DNA of 8,897 bases from IMG/VR virus record IMGVR_UViG_2671180852_000010. One strand, written 5' to 3'. The position numbers were made by a program, and so were the translations under genes. Numbering within the stretch: the stretch's first letter is position 1; each line of letters starts with the position of its first letter. Shown here piece after piece: positions 1 through 8,897 of the stretch. The notes beneath the pieces are model-generated. The model was not told the origin of the DNA. It ran no database searches and worked only from the letters and a program-made list of their open reading frames with translations. Source of the DNA: a virus. Taxonomy: Duplodnaviria > Heunggongvirae > Uroviricota > Caudoviricetes.

Positions 1-46
1 TAAAAAAAGAACAAATGGTAGTGTCCGCTATTGCCAGTACACCTCA
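1..46 (+). mobile_element. Right terminus of an IS3-family insertion sequence whose body lies upstream of the window; bases 1-3 correspond to the orfB stop codon
   Basis: Bases 1-46 are identical to 5138-5183, which directly follow the transposase OrfB stop (TAA 5138-5140) of the internal IS copy. The segment ends in ...CCTCA, matching the 5'-TG...CA-3' ends typical of IS3-family elements. The exact end is uncertain by a few bp. Confidence 0.45.
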
Positions 47-245
47 TCCATCACCGAAAAAAATTGGCTTTTACACCATTGGCGATAAAAGCATTTACCT
101 GTATGACCTACGCCGCATGGATGAAATCATGGAGGCTCTTGATAATCGTTCGTCGATGGATTGGTGTGTTGCTGTTCATGATATGAATGCAGGGTTTGAT
201 GAAAAGATTTTGTTCCCCTCATCAGTTGAAAGCACTGCGGGTTAA
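47..245 (+). pseudogene. 3' fragment of an unidentified gene, apparently interrupted by the IS insertion (about 66 codons ending ...FPSSVESTAG)
   Basis: The frame is open from inside the IS terminus through to TAA at 243-245. The ATG at 15 reported in the ORF track lies inside the presumed IS terminal sequence, so the 76-aa ORF is probably chimeric. No family recognised. Confidence 0.3.
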
Positions 246-255
246 GGAGTAACAC

Positions 256-423
256 ATGACCACTATTACCAAAGAACGTATTGAATTGTTCATTAAAAAC
301 CCGCTTGAAAACGGGCTTACCCGTGGTGAACAAATGGAACTGGCACGGATTGCGCTGGCATCGCTGGAAGCAGAGCCGGTTGTGTTCTGGTTTGAAAAAT
401 ATCAAGAAGGGGCTACGGCATGA
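256..423 (+). CDS. Hypothetical 55-aa protein ([12 protein letters not shown]...), short paralog of the N-terminal half of the next ORF
   Basis: ATG at 256 preceded by AAGGAG (244-249). The stop TGA 421-423 overlaps the next start ATG 420-422 (ATGA). Shares the MTT(I/F)T(K/R)E start, the IAL(A/V)SL(E/A)AEP motif and FEKYQEG versus HEYKPVG with ORF 420-764. It falls below the ORF-track length cutoff. Confidence 0.5.
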
Positions 424-764
424 CGACTTTTACCAGAGAGCAGTTAATAGCTCACGCAGAGGAGACTATTGAAGCACAGAGACTGTGCATACCGGGCACA
501 ATCGACCATGACATCATCCGCACATATAAGATGGATATTGCTGTTCTGGAAATCGCACTGGTATCGCTGGCAGCAGAGCCAGCCGGTAAATTGCATGAAT
601 ACAAACCAGTGGGATATCAGCGTCTGGTCGATGAGTTAACCATGCTGGTAAAGCAGTTAACCTGGCAACTGAGGAAAGCGAAGCCAGACTGCAAATTACC
701 GGATAAGGCGATGAGTTATCTGGAGCGGAACGGACTGATAAGCGTGGAGGATATTTTACGATGA
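420..764 (+). CDS. Hypothetical 114-aa protein ([15 protein letters not shown]...), family not recognised
   Basis: Translationally coupled to both neighbours by ATGA overlaps at 420-423 and 761-764. Paralogous to the preceding 55-aa ORF. An identical copy lies at 5557-5901. Confidence 0.6.
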
Positions 765-844
765 CCTGGCCTGAAGCATTAACAACGGTAGGAATTGCGA
801 TGGCGGTGGCGCTGGTGGTGTATTCGATTTGCCGCTGGGGATAA
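761..844 (+). CDS. 27-aa hydrophobic mini-protein ([27 protein letters not shown]), predicted single transmembrane helix
   Basis: ATG 761 overlaps the upstream stop (ATGA); TAA at 842-844. The hydrophobic core is flanked by W/R residues. It is short enough that the call is tentative. Confidence 0.3.
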
Positions 845-1055
845 AAACGGTTTGCGGGAAAAGGAGAGTTAAGTAGAATTGCAGCGGGTGCTTGAGGCTA
901 TCTGTCTCAGGCATGAACACCAAAAGGCAGATAGAGAAAAGCCCCAGTTAACATTACGCGTCCGGCAAGACGCTTAACATTAATCTGAGGCTCAATCTAT
1001 GAACGGCAAATCTAGGTTAGCCTCTTACGTGCCGAAAGGCAAGGAGAAGCAGGCT

Positions 1056-1211
1056 ATGAAGCAGCAAAAGGCGATGTTAATCGCCCTGATCGTCATCTGT
1101 TTAACCGTCATAGTGACGGCACTGGTAACGAGGAAAGACCTCTGCGAGGTACGAATTCGAACCGGCCAGACGGAGGTCGCTGTCTTCACAGCTTACGAAC
1201 CTGAGGAGTAA
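1056..1211 (+). CDS. hokD: Hok/Gef-family type I toxin, 51 aa (MKQQKAMLIALIVICLTVIVTALVTRKDLCEVRIRTGQTEVAVFTAYEPEE)
   Basis: The translation matches the Hok/Gef family signature (single transmembrane helix, TRKDLCEV motif, C-terminal periplasmic tail) and matches my recollection of E. coli K-12 HokD. AAGGAG at 1041-1046 lies 9 nt before the ATG. The downstream order rem, ydfU, Q fits the Qin prophage context. The ORF track extends this frame upstream to ATG 999 (70 aa). Confidence 0.85.
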   Translation: MKQQKAMLIALIVICLTVIVTALVTRKDLCEVRIRTGQTEVAVFTAYEPEE

Positions 1212-1281
1212 GAGACCAGGCGGGGGAGAAATCCCTCGCCACCTCTGATGGGTCAGGCATCCTCAATGCACCCACACTTAA

Positions 1282-1306
1282 CCCGCTTCGGCGGGTTTTT
1301 GTTTTT
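1282..1306 (+). terminator. Rho-independent terminator-like hairpin downstream of hok
   Basis: Stem CCCGC (1282-1286), loop TTCG, stem GCGGG (1291-1295), followed by TTTTTGTTTTT. Confidence 0.6.
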
Positions 1307-1319
1307 ATTTTCAACGCGT

Positions 1320-1349
1320 TTGAAGTTTTAGATGGTGCCGGAATAGAAT
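1320..1349 (+). promoter_or_regulatory. Candidate sigma70 promoter upstream of the rem-ydfU-rusA-Q gene string
   Basis: TTGAAG (1320-1325), 18-nt spacer, TAGAAT (1344-1349). Both hexamers are retained at 6457-6486 in module 2 even though the surrounding sequence has diverged. Confidence 0.3.
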
Positions 1350-1428
1350 CAAAAATACTTAAGTAGCGCGCAGGGAGAAGAGGGATGGACCCCGAACAGG
1401 GGAGTGCTATTTATCTGGAAGGATTCTG

Positions 1429-1787
1429 TTGATGAAAATCGAAGAATTACGTGAAATTTTTAGTGAAGATGGCCTCTATACTGTGCGCGTTGAGAATGGC
1501 GCTATTGTCAGCCACTGCCTTCCAGACTACACAATTCTGATAATTCAGCCGTCTTTGCCAGCAGGCACGGGCGGCGCTCTCACGCATTTAAATCTGATTG
1601 GTACCAGCATCCCCCATGCACTGAAGAACAGGCCGAATGGCTCATTCAGTGTTACCGCAGGCGCGGATGCGAGGTTAAAAAAGCCCTTAGCCTCGACTAC
1701 CGTCACTGGATAATCTCCGTCAGGCTCCCTTACTCCGAACGGCCAACGCGTCCGTCCCGCACATTCCAGCAACGGATCTGGAGGTAA
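1429..1787 (+). pseudogene. Deletion-disrupted region: rem 5' portion fused out of frame to the start-less 3' portion of the homolog of the module-2 92-aa ORF
   Basis: Module 1 is about 238 bp shorter than module 2 between the rem start and the ydfU start. ORF 1429-1713 has a Rem-like N-terminus (MMKIEELREIF...VENGAIVSH) and then reads the downstream gene in the wrong frame. The correct frame of that gene (ending TAA 1785-1787) has no ATG/GTG/TTG start after the stop at 1491-1493. Confidence 0.5.
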
Positions 1788-1788
1788 T

Positions 1789-2847
1789 GTGCGGGTATTA
1801 CTTCGACCTGTTCTGGTACCGGAACTCGGTCTGGTTATCGTTAAGCCAGGCCGTGAATCAATGTCAGCATTCCATAACGGCAGAATACTGGTGGAGCCGG
1901 AACCAAAAAGCATGCGTAATCTGCCGTCCGGGGTCGTTCCTGCCGCTCGCCAGCCGCTGGTGGAAGACAAAACATTGCTGCCGTTTTTCAGTAACGCACG
2001 GGTGATTCGTGCTGCTGGTGGTGCTGGTGCATTGTCTGACTGGCTGTTGCGCCATATTAAATCCTGCCAGTGGCCACACGGCGATTATCATCACAGCGAA
2101 ACCGTCATTCACCGTTATGGTACCGGCGCAATGGTGTTGTGCTGGCACTGCGACAACCAGCTGCGTGACCAGACATCCGAATCACTCGAGCAACTTGCTC
2201 ATCAAAACCTGTCAGCATGGATGATTGACGTCATCGGTCACGCAATAAGCGGTACGCAGGAGCGTGAATTATCTCTGGCTGAATTATCCTGGTGGGCGGT
2301 CCGCAATCAGGTGGCGGACGCGCTACCGGAAGCGGTATTACGTCGTTCGCTGGGGTTGCGTGCGGAAAAAATTCGCTCTGTGTACAGTGAAAGCGACATC
2401 ATACCGGGAGAGCAGACAGCCACCAGCATACTGAAGCAGCGCACAAAAAATATTGCGTTACTGCCTCACGTCCACCAGCAACAGAACCCACCACAGGAAA
2501 AGACGGTGGTCAGCATTGCCGTTGATCCGGAGTCACCGGCTCAGTATCTCCAGCGCCAGAAATCACAACGGGAAGAGATGCCTGTATACACGCGCTGGGT
2601 AAAAACGCAGAAATGCATGACGTGTGGCAATCAGGCAGATGATCCGCATCACATCATTGGTCATGGACTGGGAGGGATGGGAACAAAGGCTGATGATTTG
2701 TTTGTTATTCCGTTATGCCGTAAATGCCGTAACGAACTACATGCCGGAGTAAAAGATTTTGAAGAGAAACACGGCAGTCAGCTGTTGTTGCTGATTCGTT
2801 TTTTAATGCACGCGAGAAATTCGGGTGTTCTGAAGTGGAAAGCATAA
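1789..2847 (+). CDS. ydfU: YdfU-like DUF968 prophage protein, 352 aa, with a C-terminal HNH-like Cys/His motif
   Basis: GTG start at 1789 with GGAGG 5 nt upstream. C-terminal CMTCGNQADDPHH...LCRKCRNELH. Paralog at 7163-8209. Its position between rem and Q matches Qin ydfU. Confidence 0.8.
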   Translation: MRVLLRPVLVPELGLVIVKPGRESMSAFHNGRILVEPEPKSMRNLPSGVVPAARQPLVEDKTLLPFFSNARVIRAAGGAGALSDWLLRHIKSCQWPHGDYHHSETVIHRYGTGAMVLCWHCDNQLRDQTSESLEQLAHQNLSAWMIDVIGHAISGTQERELSLAELSWWAVRNQVADALPEAVLRRSLGLRAEKIRSVYSESDIIPGEQTATSILKQRTKNIALLPHVHQQQNPPQEKTVVSIAVDPESPAQYLQRQKSQREEMPVYTRWVKTQKCMTCGNQADDPHHIIGHGLGGMGTKADDLFVIPLCRKCRNELHAGVKDFEEKHGSQLLLLIRFLMHARNSGVLKWKA

Positions 2848-3228
2848 ATGACCGAGCGCATAGAATTTGTTTTACCTTACCCGCCGACGGTGAACACTTA
2901 CTGGCGTCGTCGTGGCAGCACATATTTTGTATCAAAAGCCGGGGAGCGTTATCGCCGGGCAGTGGCGCTTATTGTTCGCCAGCAGCGGCTGAAATTAAGC
3001 CTGTCCGGAAGGTTGGCAATAAAAATTATTGCAGAACCACCGGATAAGCGCCGCCGTGACCTGGACAATATTCTGAAAGCGCCGCTGGATGCGCTGACGC
3101 ATGCGGGGTTGCTAATGGACGATGAGCAGTTTGATGAAATCAATATCGTTCGTGCTCAGCCAGTATCTGGTGGACGTCTGGGGGTGAAGATTTATCCCAT
3201 AATGCTTGAAGGGCAGGTCAAAAAATGA
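2848..3228 (+). CDS. rusA: RusA-family Holliday junction resolvase (crossover junction endodeoxyribonuclease), 126 aa
   Basis: PDKRRRDLDNILKAPLDALTHAGLLMDDEQ matches the RusA catalytic-core pattern (K-12 RusA has [30 protein letters not shown]). The stop overlaps the Q start (ATGA at 3225-3228). Confidence 0.85.
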   Translation: MTERIEFVLPYPPTVNTYWRRRGSTYFVSKAGERYRRAVALIVRQQRLKLSLSGRLAIKIIAEPPDKRRRDLDNILKAPLDALTHAGLLMDDEQFDEINIVRAQPVSGGRLGVKIYPIMLEGQVKK

Positions 3229-4286
3229 AACTGGAAGATTTACCGAAATACTACTCCCCAAAATCCCCCGGCCTGACTGATGCATCGGCCTCAACGTCGA
3301 AAGATGCGCTGAGTATCACTGATGTGATGGCCGCGCAGGGCATGACACAGAATCGGGCTGAGATGGGGGTTTCTGCGTTCCTTGGGAAAATGGGCATTAG
3401 TATGAATGACAGAGAGCGGGCAACAGAATTGCTGACAGAATATGCACTCAGTCGGTGTGATCGCGTGGCGGCGTTAAGAAAACTCCCGGCAGAAATAAAA
3501 CCGGCAGTGATGCGTATTATGGCTTCGTATGCGTTTGAAGATTATGCCCGTAGCGCGGCGAGCAAAAAACAGTGCCCCTGCTGTCACGGAAAAAAATTTA
3601 TTGAAAGCGAGGTTTTTACAAACAAGATCCAGTATCCGGATGGTAAGCCGCCGGTATGGGCAAAGTGTACGAAAGGTGTGTATCCGTCTTACTGGGAAGA
3701 ATGGAAAAAAGTCAGGGAGGTGGTAAAAGTTGCCTGTCCGGAGTGTGGCGGAAAGGGTGAGGTTTCCACCGCCTGTAAGGATTGCCGTGGGCGTGGTGTC
3801 GCCATTCATCGTGAAGAGTCGGTAAAACGTGGTATGCCTGTTATCAGAGACTGCCAGCGTTGTGGTGGTCGTGGCTATGAAAGACTACCATCAACGGAGG
3901 CATTTAATGCTATATGCGAGGTGACAAACCAGATAACACGCGCGTCATGGGAAAAAACAGTTAAGAAATTTTATGATGCGCTGGTGACCCGGTTTGATAT
4001 TGAAGAAGCATGGGCTGAGCGGCAGTTAAAAAAGGTAACTAGGTATGAAAATCAACTTTCGATCAGTGAAGGCGCTTCCCGATTATCTCTTCCTGAAGGC
4101 ACTTTAGGACAATGGGTTACCGCCGCAAGAAAAGGGCTCAATACACCAGGCTCCCGCACAGTGGCTGAGCTGGAATCTGAAGTTATGCAACTGCGTAAGG
4201 CTTTAAATGAAGCACGACTTGAGCGAGATATATTAAAAAAAGCAACAGCGTATTTTGCACAGGAGTCGCTGAAAAATACGCGTTAA
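3225..4286 (+). CDS. Chimeric ORF: Q-type late antiterminator (about aa 1-274) joined in frame to the C-terminal part of an IS3-family OrfA (from about aa 275)
   Basis: The N-terminal 270 aa or so are about 95% identical to the partial Q' at 8593-8897 and carry four CxxC pairs. From about nt 4047 the translation (ENQLSISEGASRLSLPEGTLGQWV...ERDILKKATAYFAQESLKNTR) is a typical IS3-family OrfA helix-turn-helix and leucine-zipper C-terminus that lacks its own N-terminus. Confidence 0.7.
   Translation: MKLEDLPKYYSPKSPGLTDASASTSKDALSITDVMAAQGMTQNRAEMGVSAFLGKMGISMNDRERATELLTEYALSRCDRVAALRKLPAEIKPAVMRIMASYAFEDYARSAASKKQCPCCHGKKFIESEVFTNKIQYPDGKPPVWAKCTKGVYPSYWEEWKKVREVVKVACPECGGKGEVSTACKDCRGRGVAIHREESVKRGMPVIRDCQRCGGRGYERLPSTEAFNAICEVTNQITRASWEKTVKKFYDALVTRFDIEEAWAERQLKKVTRYENQLSISEGASRLSLPEGTLGQWVTAARKGLNTPGSRTVAELESEVMQLRKALNEARLERDILKKATAYFAQESLKNTR
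4235..4241 (+). other. Candidate programmed -1 ribosomal frameshift heptamer A AAA AAA (followed by G) for OrfAB fusion synthesis
   Basis: Heptamer in the OrfA zero frame (TTA AAA AAA GCA). The -1 frame is open from here into OrfB (KKSNSVFCTGVAEKYALIEQWRQQFPIEAMCQVFGVSRSGYY...). A 9-bp stem-loop begins 6 nt downstream (4248-4256 pairing with 4273-4281). Confidence 0.5.
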
Positions 4287-4321
4287 TCGAACAATGGCGA
4301 CAACAATTTCCCATTGAAGCG

Positions 4322-5140
4322 ATGTGTCAGGTATTTGGTGTATCCAGGAGCGGTTATTACAACTGGGTACAGCATGAACCCTCAGACAGAAAACAAAGTG
4401 ATGAGCGGCTAAAACTGGAGATTAAGGTGGCACATATCCGCACTCGCGAAACATATGGAACCCGGCGGCTCCAGACGGAGCTGGCAGAGAATGGCATCAT
4501 CGTTGGTCGTGACCGACTGGCACGTCTTCGTAAGGAGCTAAGGCTACGCTGTAAGCAGAAACGCAAGTTCAGAGCGACTACGAACTCGAACCACAATCTG
4601 CCAGTTGCGCCAAATCTGCTGAACCAGACGTTCGCTCCTACAGCACCAAATCAGGTCTGGGTGGCGGACCTGACGTATGTTGCCACACAGGAGGGATGGT
4701 TGTACCTCGCTGGCATCAAAGATGTTTATACGTGCGAAATTGTCGGCTACGCCATGGGAGAGCGCATGACAAAAGAGCTGACAGGTAAAGCCCTGTTTAT
4801 GGCGCTCAGGAGCCAGCGCCCACCTGCCGGGCTAATCCACCACTCTGATCGAGGTTCACAGTACTGCGCATACGATTACCGGGTCATACAGGAGCAGTCT
4901 GGTCTGAAAACATCAATGTCGCGTAAAGGTAACTGTTACGACAACGCTCCGATGGAAAGCTTCTGGGGAACGCTGAAAAATGAGAGCCTGAGCCACTATC
5001 GTTTTAATAACCGGGATGAAGCCATCTCAGTAATACGGGAATACATTGAGATTTTCTACAATCGTCAGCGTCGTCACTCTCGTCTGGGGAATATCTCCCC
5101 GGCAGCCTTCAGGGAAAAATATCATCAGATGGCTGCTTAA
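4322..5140 (+). CDS. IS3-family transposase OrfB (DDE / rve integrase core); the coordinates are the standalone ORF, which in vivo is probably made as an OrfAB frameshift product
   Basis: Conserved IS3-family OrfB features: VWVADLTYV, HSDRGSQY, a KGNCYDNAPMESFWGTLK segment containing the catalytic E, and a C-terminal YNRQRRHSRLGNISP. It is in the -1 frame relative to OrfA. Confidence 0.85.
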   Translation: MCQVFGVSRSGYYNWVQHEPSDRKQSDERLKLEIKVAHIRTRETYGTRRLQTELAENGIIVGRDRLARLRKELRLRCKQKRKFRATTNSNHNLPVAPNLLNQTFAPTAPNQVWVADLTYVATQEGWLYLAGIKDVYTCEIVGYAMGERMTKELTGKALFMALRSQRPPAGLIHHSDRGSQYCAYDYRVIQEQSGLKTSMSRKGNCYDNAPMESFWGTLKNESLSHYRFNNRDEAISVIREYIEIFYNRQRRHSRLGNISPAAFREKYHQMAA

Positions 5141-5183
5141 AAAAAGAACAAATGGTAGTGTCCGCTATTGCCAGTACACCTCA

Positions 5184-5382
5184 TCCATCACCGAAAAAAA
5201 TTGGCTTTTACACCATTGGCGATAAAAGCATTTACCTGTATGACCTACGCCGCATGGATGAAATCATGGAGGCTCTTGATAATCGTTCGTCGATGGATTG
5301 GTGTGTTGCTGTTCATGATATGAATGCAGGGTTTGATGAAAAGATTTTGTTCCCCTCATCAGTTGAAAGCACTGCGGGTTAA
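5184..5382 (+). pseudogene. Second copy of the 3' fragment of the IS-interrupted gene (identical to 47-245)
   Basis: Identical sequence directly downstream of the IS right end. Confidence 0.3.
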
Positions 5383-5392
5383 GGAGTAACAC

Positions 5393-5560
5393 ATGACCAC
5401 TATTACCAAAGAACGTATTGAATTGTTCATTAAAAACCCGCTTGAAAACGGGCTTACCCGTGGTGAACAAATGGAACTGGCACGGATTGCGCTGGCATCG
5501 CTGGAAGCAGAGCCGGTTGTGTTCTGGTTTGAAAAATATCAAGAAGGGGCTACGGCATGA
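5393..5560 (+). CDS. Hypothetical 55-aa protein, identical copy of 256-423
   Basis: Identical sequence, with AAGGAG upstream and an ATGA overlap with the next gene. Confidence 0.5.
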
Positions 5561-5901
5561 CGACTTTTACCAGAGAGCAGTTAATAGCTCACGCAGAGGA
5601 GACTATTGAAGCACAGAGACTGTGCATACCGGGCACAATCGACCATGACATCATCCGCACATATAAGATGGATATTGCTGTTCTGGAAATCGCACTGGTA
5701 TCGCTGGCAGCAGAGCCAGCCGGTAAATTGCATGAATACAAACCAGTGGGATATCAGCGTCTGGTCGATGAGTTAACCATGCTGGTAAAGCAGTTAACCT
5801 GGCAACTGAGGAAAGCGAAGCCAGACTGCAAATTACCGGATAAGGCGATGAGTTATCTGGAGCGGAACGGACTGATAAGCGTGGAGGATATTTTACGATG
5901 A
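5557..5901 (+). CDS. Hypothetical 114-aa protein, identical copy of 420-764
   Basis: Identical translation in the ORF track. Confidence 0.6.
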
Positions 5902-5981
5902 CCTGGCCTGAAGCATTAACAACGGTAGGAATTGCGATGGCGGTGGCGCTGGTGGTGTATTCGATTTGCCGCTGGGGATAA
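5898..5981 (+). CDS. 27-aa hydrophobic mini-protein, identical copy of 761-844
   Basis: Identical sequence, with an ATGA overlap with the upstream gene. Confidence 0.3.
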
Positions 5982-6192
5982 AAACGGTTTGCGGGAAAAG
6001 GAGAGTTAAGTAGAATTGCAGCGGGTGCTTGAGGCTATCTGTCTCAGGCATGAACACCAAAAGGCAGATAGAGAAAAGCCCCAGTTAACATTACGCGTCC
6101 GGCAAGACGCTTAACATTAATCTGAGGCTCAATCTATGAACGGCAAATCTAGGTTAGCCTCTTACGTGCCGAAAGGCAAGGAGAAGCAGGCT

Positions 6193-6348
6193 ATGAAGCA
6201 GCAAAAGGCGATGTTAATCGCCCTGATCGTCATCTGTTTAACCGTCATAGTGACGGCACTGGTAACGAGGAAAGACCTCTGCGAGGTACGAATTCGAACC
6301 GGCCAGACGGAGGTCGCTGTCTTCACAGCTTACGAACCTGAGGAGTAA
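6193..6348 (+). CDS. hokD: Hok/Gef-family type I toxin, identical second copy
   Basis: Identical to 1056-1211. Confidence 0.85.
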   Translation: MKQQKAMLIALIVICLTVIVTALVTRKDLCEVRIRTGQTEVAVFTAYEPEE

Positions 6349-6418
6349 GAGACCCGGCGAGGGAGAAATCCCTCGCCACCTCTGATGTGGCAGGCATTCT
6401 CAACGCACCCGCACTTAA

Positions 6419-6443
6419 CCCGCTTCGGCGGGTTTTTGTTTTT
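6419..6443 (+). terminator. Rho-independent terminator-like hairpin downstream of hok copy 2
   Basis: Same CCCGC-TTCG-GCGGG stem-loop followed by a T-run, in sequence that has otherwise started to diverge between modules. Confidence 0.6.
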
Positions 6444-6456
6444 ATTTTCAACGCAT

Positions 6457-6486
6457 TTGAAGTTCTGGACGGTGCCGGAATAGAAT
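6457..6486 (+). promoter_or_regulatory. Candidate sigma70 promoter, module-2 copy
   Basis: TTGAAG, 18-nt spacer, TAGAAT, conserved with 1320-1349. Confidence 0.3.
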
Positions 6487-6564
6487 CAAAAATACTTAAG
6501 TAGCGCGCAGGGATAAGAGGGATGGTCCCTTAAAGGGGAGAGCTAATTATCCGGAAGGATTCTG

Positions 6565-6816
6565 ATGATGAACATCGAAGAACTGCGTAAAATTTTTTGT
6601 GAAGATGGCCTCTATGCTGTGTGCGTTGAAAATGGAAATATTGTTAGTCATTACCGCATTGTGTGTTTGCAAAAAAATGGGGCTGCGTTAATTAATTTTG
6701 TGGATGCCCGAGTGACGGACGGATTTATCTTGCGCGACGGTGAGTTTGTCACTTCATTACAGGTATTGAAAGAGATCGGAATAAAAGCTGGCTTTTCTGC
6801 TTTTTCAGAAGAATAA
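6565..6816 (+). CDS. rem: Rem-like small prophage protein, 83 aa, intact
   Basis: Its length and its position between hokD and ydfU fit E. coli Qin rem. GGAAGG lies upstream of tandem ATG ATG. Assigned by context and recollection, not by search. Confidence 0.55.
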   Translation: MMNIEELRKIFCEDGLYAVCVENGNIVSHYRIVCLQKNGAALINFVDARVTDGFILRDGEFVTSLQVLKEIGIKAGFSAFSEE

Positions 6817-6882
6817 ACTCATCTACAATCTTGCGCGGGGCTGAACTCCCGCTGAGTAACACCGTGCCACCGGAGAAAACCG

Positions 6883-7161
6883 ATGGCACGCAACGCAAAA
6901 TATTACAAACATGATAATTCGACCGTTCTTGCCCACACGCACGAGCGGTATTCTCACGCATTTAAGTCAGACTGGTACCAGCATCCCCCATGCACTGAAG
7001 AACAGGCCGAATGGCTCATTCAGTGTTACCGCAGGCGCGGATGCGAGGTTAAAAAAGCCCTTAGCCTCGACTACCGTCACTGGATAATCTCCGTCAGGCT
7101 TCCTTACTCTGAACGCCCACCGCGTCCGTCCCGCACATTCCAGCAACGCATCTGGAGGTAA
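6883..7161 (+). CDS. Hypothetical 92-aa protein (MARNAKYYKHDNST...), family not recognised
   Basis: GGAG lies upstream of the ATG. The stop TAA 7159-7161 directly abuts the ydfU' GTG start. Most differences from the module-1 homologous segment are synonymous in this frame (aag/aaa, tca/tct, gac/gat, ctt/ctc, tct/tcc, cgc/cgg), which supports it as a real coding frame. Confidence 0.6.
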   Translation: MARNAKYYKHDNSTVLAHTHERYSHAFKSDWYQHPPCTEEQAEWLIQCYRRRGCEVKKALSLDYRHWIISVRLPYSERPPRPSRTFQQRIWR

Positions 7162-7162
7162 C

Positions 7163-8209
7163 GTGCGGGTATTACTTCGACCTGTTCTGGTACCGGAACT
7201 CGGGCTGGTGATCGTTAAGCCGGGCCGTGAATCCATGCCGGTATTCCACAATACCCGGGTACTGGTGGAGCCGGAACCGAAAAGCATGCGTAATCTGCCG
7301 TCCGGGGTCGTTCCTGCCGTTCGCCAGCCGCTGGCGGAGGATAAATCATTACTGCCATTTTTCAGCGACGAACGAGTGATTCGTGCTGCTGGTGGCGCTG
7401 GCGCATTGTCTGACTGGTTACTGCGCCATGTTAAATCCTGCCAGTGGCCACACGGCGATTATCACCACAGTGAAACCGTCATTCACCGTTATGGTACCGG
7501 CGCAATGGTGTTGTGCTGGCACTGCGACAACCAGCTGCGCGACCAGACCTCCGAATCACTCGGGCAACTTGCTCACCAAAACCTGTCTGCATGGATGATT
7601 GACGTCATACGCCATGCAATGAATGGCTCGCAGGAACGGGAATTATCGCTGGCTGAATTATCCTGGTGGGCGGTCCGCAATCAGGTGGCGGACGCGCTAC
7701 CGGAAGCGGTATTATGTCGTTCGCTGGGGTTGCGTGCGGAAAAAATCCGCTCAATGTACCGTGAAAGCGACATCGTACCGGGAGAGCAGACCGCCACCAG
7801 CATACTGAAGCAGCGCACAAAAAATCTTGCGCCGCTGCCTCACGCCCACCAGCAAAACCCGCCACAGGAAGAGACGGTGGTCAGCATTGCCGTTGATCCT
7901 GAGTCTCCGGAATCTTTCATGAAACGACCTAAACGTCGCCGCTGGGTTAACGAGAAATACACACGCTGGGTGAAGACACAGCCGTGTGCGTGTTGTGGTA
8001 AGCCAGCCGACGATCCCCATCACCTGATTGGTCATGGTCAGGGCGGAATGGGGACAAAATCTCACGATATTTTCACGCTACCGCTGTGTCGGGAGCATCA
8101 CAACGAGCTTCATGCGGATCCTCTGGCGTTCGAAGAAAAGCATGGTTCTCAGGTTGATTTAATTTTTCGTTTTCTTGATCACGCCTTTGCAACTGGCGTG
8201 CTTGGGTAA
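7163..8209 (+). CDS. ydfU: YdfU-like DUF968 protein, 348 aa, diverged paralog of 1789-2847
   Basis: GTG start. The N-terminal two-thirds are about 90% identical to module 1. The C-terminal motif is CACCGKPADDPHH...LCREHHNELH, and the extreme C-terminus is divergent. Confidence 0.8.
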   Translation: MRVLLRPVLVPELGLVIVKPGRESMPVFHNTRVLVEPEPKSMRNLPSGVVPAVRQPLAEDKSLLPFFSDERVIRAAGGAGALSDWLLRHVKSCQWPHGDYHHSETVIHRYGTGAMVLCWHCDNQLRDQTSESLGQLAHQNLSAWMIDVIRHAMNGSQERELSLAELSWWAVRNQVADALPEAVLCRSLGLRAEKIRSMYRESDIVPGEQTATSILKQRTKNLAPLPHAHQQNPPQEETVVSIAVDPESPESFMKRPKRRRWVNEKYTRWVKTQPCACCGKPADDPHHLIGHGQGGMGTKSHDIFTLPLCREHHNELHADPLAFEEKHGSQVDLIFRFLDHAFATGVLG

Positions 8210-8221
8210 AAGAGGTGACTG

Positions 8222-8596
8222 ATGCTCATAGATTTGGTTTTACCTTACCCGCCGACGGTGAACACTTACTGGCGACGCCGTGGCAGCACATATTTTATCT
8301 CGGAGGAGGGAAAGCGTTATCGCCGGGCTGTGGCGCTTATTGTTCGCCAGCAGCGGCTGAAATTAAGCCTGTCCGGAAGGCTGGCGATAAAGGTGATTGC
8401 AGAGCCACCGGATAAGCGTCGTCGCGACCTGGACAATATCCTGAAAGCACCGCTGGATGCGCTGACGCATGCGGGAGTGTTAATGGACGATGAGCAGTTT
8501 GATGAAATCAATATCGTTCGTGGTCAGCCAGTATCTGGTGGACGTATGGGGGTGAAGATTTACCCCATAATGCATGAAGAGCAGGTCAAAAAATGA
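8222..8596 (+). CDS. rusA: RusA-family Holliday junction resolvase, 124 aa, paralog of 2848-3228
   Basis: Same conserved core. AAGAGG lies upstream of the ATG. The stop overlaps the Q' start (ATGA). Confidence 0.85.
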   Translation: MLIDLVLPYPPTVNTYWRRRGSTYFISEEGKRYRRAVALIVRQQRLKLSLSGRLAIKVIAEPPDKRRRDLDNILKAPLDALTHAGVLMDDEQFDEINIVRGQPVSGGRMGVKIYPIMHEEQVKK

Positions 8597-8897
8597 AACT
8601 GGAAGATTTACCGAAATACTACTCCCCAAAATCCCCTTGCCTGACCGATGCATCGGCCTCAACGTCAAAAGATGCGCTGAGTATCACTGATGTGATGGCC
8701 GCGCAGGGCATGACACAGAATCGGGCTGAGATGGGGTTTTCTGCGTTCCTGGGGAAAATGGGCATCAGTATGAATGACAGGGCGCGGGCAACAGAATTAC
8801 TGGCAGATTATGCACTCAGTCGGTGCGATCGTGTGGCGGCGTTGAGAAAACTTCCGGCAGAAATAAAACCGGTAGTGATGCGCATTATGGCTTCGTA
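8593..8897 (+). CDS. Q-type antiterminator, 5' portion only (the ORF runs off the window end)
   Basis: ATG 8593; the translation MKLEDLPKYYSPKSPCLTDASASTSKDALSITDVMAAQG... is about 95% identical to Q at 3225. Absent from the ORF track because there is no stop within the window. Confidence 0.75.
   Translation, partial: MKLEDLPKYYSPKSPCLTDASASTSKDALSITDVMAAQGMTQNRAEMGFSAFLGKMGISMNDRARATELLADYALSRCDRVAALRKLPAEIKPVVMRIMAS

Follow-up and report, generated by a model that had tools for sequence, protein, structure and literature searches.

The 8,897-nucleotide stretch of the Caudoviricetes record IMGVR_UViG_2671180852_000010 in IMG/VR, referred to here as the window, contains two head-to-tail modules of lambdoid prophage genes with a truncated copy of the insertion sequence (IS) IS600 between them. 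The first module comes from a defective prophage remnant of Shigella sonnei (prophage A), whereas the second begins as a perfect repeat of the left part of A and continues, from the end of its hok gene, as a different lambdoid prophage (prophage B). We consider it fairly probable that the window records a recent, strain-specific duplication of A together with a crossover between the hok genes of A and B. The identical block shared by the two modules would then be duplicated A DNA that has crossed over with B, and not a patch homogenized between old paralogues, because it includes a second copy of the IS600/A junction, which derives from a single historical insertion, and because the left flank of B bears no relation to that of A and lacks an IS600. 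What each piece consists of can be read directly from the alignments; the steps that joined them are what we infer.

In the self-alignment of the window, positions 1-1217 are identical to 5138-6354 base for base, with no mismatch anywhere in the block, and mismatches begin at 1218/6355. The first-pass annotation, made from the window alone, had described this block as 1-1216 against 5138-6353, which is correct but one base short. A chance origin of 1217 identical bases can be ruled out, as the probability at the later divergence of approximately 8% is 0.92^1217 < 1e-40. When the gapped alignment of the two modules is divided into 200-bp bins, identity is 1.00 over 1-1200, 0.925 at 1201-1400, 0.815 at 1401-1600, and 0.97 at 1601-1800, continues at 0.875, 0.94, 0.905, and 0.88 over 1801-2600, falls to 0.667 at 2601-2800, and returns to 0.863, 0.915, 0.955, and 0.915 in the bins covering 2801-3529. 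Past the identical block, the modules thus share 67-97% identity per 200 bp (0.667-0.97 by bin), which bears out the abrupt drop to homologous but diverged modules that had been noted. The same annotation had listed a 1-bp indel before rem, a 238-bp deletion in module 1, and differing C termini of YdfU. We find the indel at 1397, a shift in offset from 5136 to 5374 that makes the 238 bp a net deletion, and strongly diverged C-terminal regions of the DUF968 proteins (2540-2855 versus 7911-8222). Its argument that a duplication followed by simple divergence cannot yield this pattern also holds. Within the DUF968/HNH gene, the C-terminal ~300 nt are ~67% identical between the modules and the remaining gene is ~88-94% identical, forming a mosaic patch inside one gene.

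The four pieces of the window are prophage A (1-4045), truncated IS600 (4046-5183), a repeat of the left part of A (5184-6354), and prophage B (from 6295/6355 to 8897). Features were assigned by Pfam, NCBIfam, PHROGs, and Rfam searches and by comparison with annotated E. coli prophages, as follows.

1-46, plus strand: last 46 nt of IS600 with the right inverted-repeat end ...ACACCTCA (39-46); IS600 copies align with the window as far as 46 and 5183, and the window edge cuts the element.
47-245, plus strand: remaining 3' portion of a phage gene that IS600 interrupts (phrog_1714, profile positions 21-87 of 87), in copy 1 of the A left segment (AL).
256-764, plus strand: two small phage genes, of 55 aa (256-423) and 114 aa (420-764); PHROGs 3323, 660, and 60 for both.
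886-1306, plus strand: hok/sok copy 1, wholly A-type, with a mok-frame open reading frame (ORF) at 999-1211 and hok at 1056-1211 (Pfam HOK_GEF, Rfam sok, predicted fold).
1218-3224, plus strand: A right segment (AR), with a rem remnant fused to the next ORF, DUF968/HNH at 1789-2847, and RusA at 2848-3228 (Pfam DUF968 and RusA).
3225-4045, plus strand: antiterminator Q of A, Q(A), without the final base of its stop codon (Pfam Antiterm, E 2.6e-53).
4045-4046, no strand: junction J1, between the Q(A) stop codon and IS600 nt 127, from comparison of the window, the DNA downstream of A, and IS600.
4046-5183, plus strand: truncated IS600 (nt 127-1264) with an intact orfB at 4322-5140, from alignment to complete copies (NCBIfam transpos_IS3, E 1e-99).
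5184-6354, plus strand: copy 2 of AL and hok/sok, 1171 bp long, which with 5138-5183 is identical to 1-1217 (self-alignment; Rfam sok at 6023-6198).
6295-6354, no strand: junction J3, the A-to-B crossover interval, between the last B-differing site (6294) and the first A-differing site (6355).
6355-8897, plus strand: B right segment (BR), with rem at 6565-6816, a 92-aa ORF at 6883-7161, DUF968 of 348 aa at 7163-8209, RusA of 124 aa at 8222-8596, and the start of Q(B) from 8593 to the window end (Pfam, PHROG).

The genes follow the lambdoid nin/Q order hok, rem, DUF968 (YdfU), RusA, Q on one strand, an order that is also present in annotated E. coli prophages and phage records. The modules repeat with a period (head-to-tail offset) of 5137 bp. 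This period is not independent proof of a duplication and we do not use it as such, since by construction it is the same as the spacing between IS600 nt 127 and Q 4045 in the reference. The figure of 1217 bp is a lower bound for the repeat, as the block begins at window base 1, within the IS600 right end. The true repeat is probably ~2.2 kb or more, given that in the reference genomes a complete IS600 precedes this point and that 4218-5137 of the window matches that IS600 except for single SNPs private to individual strains in four of the eleven copies compared.

The source of module 1 is clear. Locus A is an IS600-disrupted, ompW-adjacent defective lambdoid remnant, which reads IS600, cut gene, two small genes, hok/sok, rem', DUF968, RusA, and Q. 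We compared it across ten complete or near-complete S. sonnei-type genomes. Positions 1-4045 of the window are 100% identical, with 0 mismatches, to the corresponding locus in seven of them, L012 matches over 3-4045, and L004 and L009 are likewise 100% identical to the A sequence of the window but carry 250 extra bases at 1519/1520. AR is 100% identical to S. sonnei L003, L005, L007, L008, L010, and L011. An ORF that begins in the end of IS600 and continues across the insertion junction into the cut gene (15-245) occurs in 795 collection blocks, and all the places shown match S. sonnei in genome size and gene content; strains that carry locus A include 2015C-3566 (L007, CP022457), UKMCC1015 (L009, CP060117), and the draft of 53G (L024). 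The locus lies a few kb from ompW in most of the compared genomes, with a complete 1264-bp IS600 before it and ordinary phage DNA after Q. No second module is found in the ten genomes, where A is single-copy throughout.

Several further features of locus A vary or bear on its past. The 250-bp deletion at 1519/1520 (L004 11506-11755) shortens rem and fuses it to the next ORF, giving an ORF at 1429-1713. It is polymorphic in S. sonnei, as L004 (CP032523) and L009 are undeleted and the window and the other loci are deleted, and its ends share at most 1-2 bp. The intact form of the phage gene cut by IS600 encodes 88 aa and is found in E. coli L002, and the products of the neighboring 55-aa and 114-aa genes are weak paralogues (BLASTP, 33% identity over 54 aa, E 1e-5). 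The IS600 upstream of A (L003 8766-10035) is without a 3-bp target duplication, having flanks of TTT and TCC, and on its left side the DUF977 gene runs opposite to its direction in prophage B. Together, the flank mismatch and the inverted gene point to what may have been an older IS600-associated inversion or deletion. The DNA farther upstream, past the genes that adjoin this IS600, differs among strains, with ompW and its neighbors in most, tail-fiber genes in L005, Mu-like genes in L008, and genes for methyltransferases of the Methyltransf family in L011. This variability indicates probable large IS-mediated rearrangements with breakpoints near the locus.

J1 is the novel joint that makes the arrangement tandem; the first-pass annotation had recognized neither the truncation of the central IS nor its non-homologous joining to the Q stop codon. 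Past Q, the reference genomes read ...AACTAGGTA|ACAAGG (with the end of Q as GGTA|ACAAGG) and IS600 reads ...GGTTCT|TGAAAATC, whereas the window reads ...AACTAGGTA|TGAAAATC. The microhomology at this joint is 0 bp, and IS600 identity begins exactly at 4046, corresponding to IS600 nt 127. We considered J1 as a product of IS transposition and rejected it: the joint lies 126 nt inside the element, the left inverted repeat is resembled only in its first three bases (TGA), and the flanks of GTA on the left and TCC on the right give no 3-bp target-site duplication. As in a tandem duplication, the repeat is head to tail with one novel joint (Q 4045 to IS600 nt 127, offset 5137 bp), but the same sequence is not kept over the whole unit, as identity is confined to 1-1217 and the rest of copy 2 is B. 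Across J1, Q(A) reads in frame into the truncated orfA to form an ORF of 353 aa (3225-4286), which the A7G motif at 4235-4242 could in principle extend into orfB. When compared with phage records, the whole window gave partial prophage matches only, and 3900-5300 compared with plasmid records gave IS600 matches only. The top match in the search for the Q-OrfA fusion, P0001, was set aside: it is a 337-aa Q with an internal duplication of ~90 residues on a 1.8-kb contig (L022 704-1717, GCA_029782595.1), is unrelated to J1, and may be an assembly artifact of that contig.

The element to the right of J1 is IS600, which is 1264 bp when complete and is annotated in PLSDB as "IS3-like element IS600 family transposase". 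It has the orfA/orfB organization and DDE (rve) transposase of IS3-type elements, with a transpos_IS3 match on orfB (E 1e-99), HTH_Tnp_1 in the orfA part, and the A7G motif already mentioned. The right end ACACCTCA is present at 5176-5183 as it is at 39-46, but the pair of terminal repeats (5'-TG...CA-3') of a full-length element is not. The internal copy comprises nt 127-1264, without the left inverted repeat and the first 20 orfA codons. Because it has lost the left 126 nt, with the left repeat among them, it would be an immobile remnant. Its sequence over 4218-5183 agrees with the chromosomal IS600 of S. sonnei except for single private SNPs in 4 of the 11 copies compared.

Module 2 departs from A at the hok gene and thereafter belongs to B. 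The 348-aa DUF968 protein (7163-8209) occurs in 53 collection blocks, and the places shown are a complete-looking lambdoid prophage with the gene order dicB, cI/cro, ydaT, dnaT, P, DUF977 and further early genes, a 171-aa gene, hok, rem, the 92-aa ORF, DUF968, RusA, and Q. Over 6295-8897, the window differs from B by 2 mismatches in L013 and 1 in L016; over 5976-6294, it differs by 18 sites plus indels in L013 and by 10 sites in L016. Upstream of 5976 (839 in copy 1), the B copies have no homology to A, and the public copies shown have no IS600 left of hok. Many E. coli prophages carry B-type sequence at 99.7-99.8% identity. A and B are 91-98% identical over the homologous stretches that align between hok and the lysis region, and on this basis we rejected the possibility that they are alleles of one locus in favor of separate prophages.

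The change from A to B can be placed within a 60-bp perfect A/B run, which consists of the last 54 nt of hok plus 6 nt and lies within a stretch identical at 177 of 178 positions (1040-1217 in A coordinates). This run is among the longer A/B identity runs and is ample for RecA; with a donor B that shared the base of A at 6294, the interval would instead span 6021-6354. A mosaic junction of two lambdoid prophages had been among the possibilities raised by the first-pass annotation. The mosaic itself stands, with module 1 as A and the right part of module 2 as B, but the position given for it, 3' of hok, does not, as the exchange (6295-6354) falls inside the 3' end of hok. An exact 82-mer across the crossover has no match in genome or metagenome contigs. 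We dropped this 82-mer as evidence because it is not diagnostic: it has one IMG/VR match, in L021, a different phage that is ~91-92% identical overall and carries a natural combination of SNPs.

The locus in which the exchange lies has the parts of a regular hok/sok system. Each copy encodes a Hok ORF with an overlapping mok frame (HOK_GEF E 3e-23, NCBIfam Hok family; 70-aa mok-frame ORFs at 999-1211 and 6136-6348), and the Rfam sok model RF01794 scores 112 bits in both copies (886-1061 and 6023-6198). In predicted minimum-free-energy folds, GGGUGCUUGAGG pairs with the 3' element CCUCAAUGCACCC in copy 1 or UCUCAACGCACCC in the hybrid copy. The hybrid hok mRNA is therefore predicted to retain its end pairing despite three substitutions in the 3' element (1261, 1267, and 1274 in copy-1 coordinates). 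The recombinant locus (6023-6443) has an A-type 5' part and a B-type 3' part.

To account for these features, we favor two steps. An illegitimate, RecA-independent join, by template switch or end-joining, would have produced a tandem duplication with the novel joint Q(4045)/IS600(127). A crossover of RecA type, pairing the hok gene of copy 2 with that of a B either co-resident or incoming, would have replaced everything rightward; if B lay downstream in the same orientation, this crossover would be a simple deletion between direct repeats. Either order of duplication and crossover is compatible with the window, and the same product would result from a double exchange bounded by IS600 and hok. 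A recent duplication explains the perfect 1217-bp identity, and a crossover between two different phages explains the abrupt drop in identity that follows it. The conserved hok/sok cassette would have acted as the homology patch.

Several observations weigh against this history. Neither the tandem nor any sequence spanning J1 is found when the J1 region and the whole window are compared with 5,426 complete E. coli genomes, and a 47-mer across J1 has no match in GTDB representatives, IMG/VR, or JGI metagenomes. No exact record exists of the Q-OrfA fusion, and no protein covers both of its halves among 5.8 billion protein clusters. A hybrid with A on the left and B on the right, at 99% identity or better, is not found in the complete E. 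coli genomes or in 80 IMG/VR prophage loci that carry the B-type DUF968. In a RecA+ cell, instability would be expected of a direct repeat of at least 1.2 kb that encloses a unit of 5.1 kb. Finally, the first part of the internal IS600 contains a 13-SNP variant patch (4127-4217) that is absent from 11 of 11 chromosomal IS600 copies of S. sonnei, among them those that precede A in nine genomes, so that either the upstream copy of the source strain differs or a further conversion event is needed.

These alignments show that the internal element does not simply duplicate the IS600 that precedes A in the nine references. The 4127-4217 patch is identical to IS600 on the virulence plasmids (pINV) of S. 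flexneri, S. sonnei, S. boydii, and S. dysenteriae, and one S. flexneri pINV copy equals the window exactly over 4046-4488 and then diverges. Shigella IS600 copies are thus mosaics of two sequence types, and the patch need not be linked to the rearrangement. We also considered whether the truncation was inherited from the pINV variant and rejected this, as the copy on the pINV of S. sonnei is nearly complete on its left side.

The most serious competitor to a duplication with crossover is an assembly or scaffolding artifact, which we regard as possible though rather unlikely. In this case A and B, or A and an A/B deletion hybrid, would lie at separate places and would have been strung together through the IS600 and hok repeats by the assembler, by contig joining, or by chimeric library molecules. 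The absence of the tandem, J1, and the exact hybrid from everything else in the collections searched, as well as the expected instability of the repeat, would be accounted for at once. Two of the three switches in sequence type fall in perfect repeats of 41 bp (4218-4258) and 60 bp (6295-6354), where a graph traversal could hop, J1 is blunt like the concatenation of two contigs, and the window begins 46 nt inside a repeat, IS600. However, the two sides of J1 share no k-mer, so graph ambiguity cannot make this joint, and real or chimeric molecules or an explicit joining step would be needed. A second contig would also have to cross 966 bp of canonical IS600 and 1171 bp already used, repeats of a kind that assembly from short reads does not resolve. 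Against the references the sequence is perfect, with 0 mismatches in 4045 bp, and natural IS600 copies carry the same patch, so the switch at 4218-4258 need not be an artifact.

As an alternative to separate steps, all the template switches within 2.3 kb may have come from one replicative event, although we consider this improbable. A fork stalled or broken at the end of Q would re-prime in IS600 without homology and then hop between diverged repeats, in a break-induced or microhomology-mediated replication with serial template switching. The template would have changed from the Q(A) stop codon to nt 127 of IS600, possibly from variant to canonical IS600 at 4218-4258, and from A to B at 6295-6354. 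The second of these is weakened as part of the event, because an S. flexneri pINV copy has the same sequence as the window from 4046 to 4488, so that such mosaics pre-exist. If true, this single event would be a natural bacterial example of a mechanism proposed for complex duplications, and the doubled hok/sok cassette might also help to maintain the duplication.

A gene conversion or double exchange, in which an old IS600-flanked B-type module beside A had its left part overwritten by an A tract ending in IS600 and hok, seems to us improbable as well. There is homology on both sides of such a tract, in IS600 and in hok, the mosaic Shigella IS600 copies indicate that conversion among them happens, and the product within the window would be indistinguishable. 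Yet only the hok side is homologous in native B: upstream of 5976, all public copies shown have an unrelated left flank with no IS600. The native left flank of B lacks homology to A upstream of 839/5976, which makes the simple form of the earlier proposal, gene conversion of just the IS-proximal 1.2 kb between two tandem paralogues, unlikely. Moreover, an A-B tandem precursor is in no public genome examined, J1 would still be unexplained, and more events are needed than for a duplication and a single crossover.

Natural variation among related prophages was surveyed in the 80 IMG/VR loci, where A-left, hok, the rem region, and DUF968-RusA occur in many combinations. L030 and L033, for example, combine A-left at 99.7-100% with hok at 96.8%, a rem region at 83-85%, and DUF968-RusA at 97.6-99.7%. 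The combination in the window at 99% or better is found in 0 of the 80 loci, and J1 also in 0 of 80. It is very improbable that module 2 is a third, naturally mosaic phage (A-left with B-right) that lysogenized beside A with no recent recombination in this genome, since the natural prophages that join A-left (99-100%) to B-type DUF968-RusA (97-99.7%), namely L030, L032, L033, L036, and E. coli L002, have a different hok (96.8%) and rem region (83-86%), and since module 2 shares with A the IS600 insertion junction and 1217 bp at 100%, the mark of a single S. sonnei insertion event that is not expected in an independent phage.

The locus is best flagged for misassembly, as near-identical prophages and IS600 copies are a typical assembler trap. 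If the arrangement is real, the duplication and crossover provide a fresh snapshot of prophage-prophage recombination, with both parents identifiable at 99.9-100% and the exchange mapped to 60 bp in hok/sok. It illustrates how short conserved cassettes serve as joints in lambdoid mosaicism and how IS-rich Shigella reshuffles its defective prophages, and it adds no new mechanism or gene.

The class of event, prophage-prophage recombination with segmental duplication in an IS-rich Shigella, is well known, and the particular arrangement is unseen in the collections searched. Enterobacterial chromosomes form tandem segmental duplications by illegitimate, RecA-independent joining. The window resembles these in its head-to-tail repeat, its one homology-free novel joint (J1), and copies that are identical where both derive from A. 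It differs in that its copy 2 is partial, with the right part replaced by another prophage, and in that one joint is visible while the outer ends lie beyond the window. Tandem and nested prophages at ompW are the subject of a report (10.1101/2020.11.04.367953). The likeness to IS600-driven rearrangement in Shigella lies in the element, which is IS600 by sequence, and in the S. sonnei loci around A, which show IS600/IS1-associated rearrangements with left neighbors that differ in L005, L008, and L011. Here, however, J1 is set 126 nt inside the element instead of at an IS end, with no target duplication.

A chromosomal prophage example of hok/sok is hokD of Qin, also called relF. Like such loci, those in the window have a Hok ORF, a mok-frame ORF, a sok match, and predicted pairing between the 5' and 3' ends of the mRNA. 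The locus itself is ordinary, and it serves here only as the stretch of homology for the crossover. Lambdoid phages evolve by modular mosaicism, and co-resident prophages of E. coli and Shigella recombine, for example in the nin region and in Stx or O157 prophages. The free reassortment in the 80 loci indicates that joints at the hok cassette are routine in this mosaicism, and the window follows the same pattern in that related prophages have swapped segments at a short conserved stretch while keeping the standard nin order of hok, rem, DUF968, RusA, and Q. Because the recombinant matches each parent at 99.9-100%, the event would be very recent and not ancient mosaicism. Unlike in the usual mosaic, parental A and the A/B recombinant stand here side by side, 5.1 kb apart, with a truncated IS between them.

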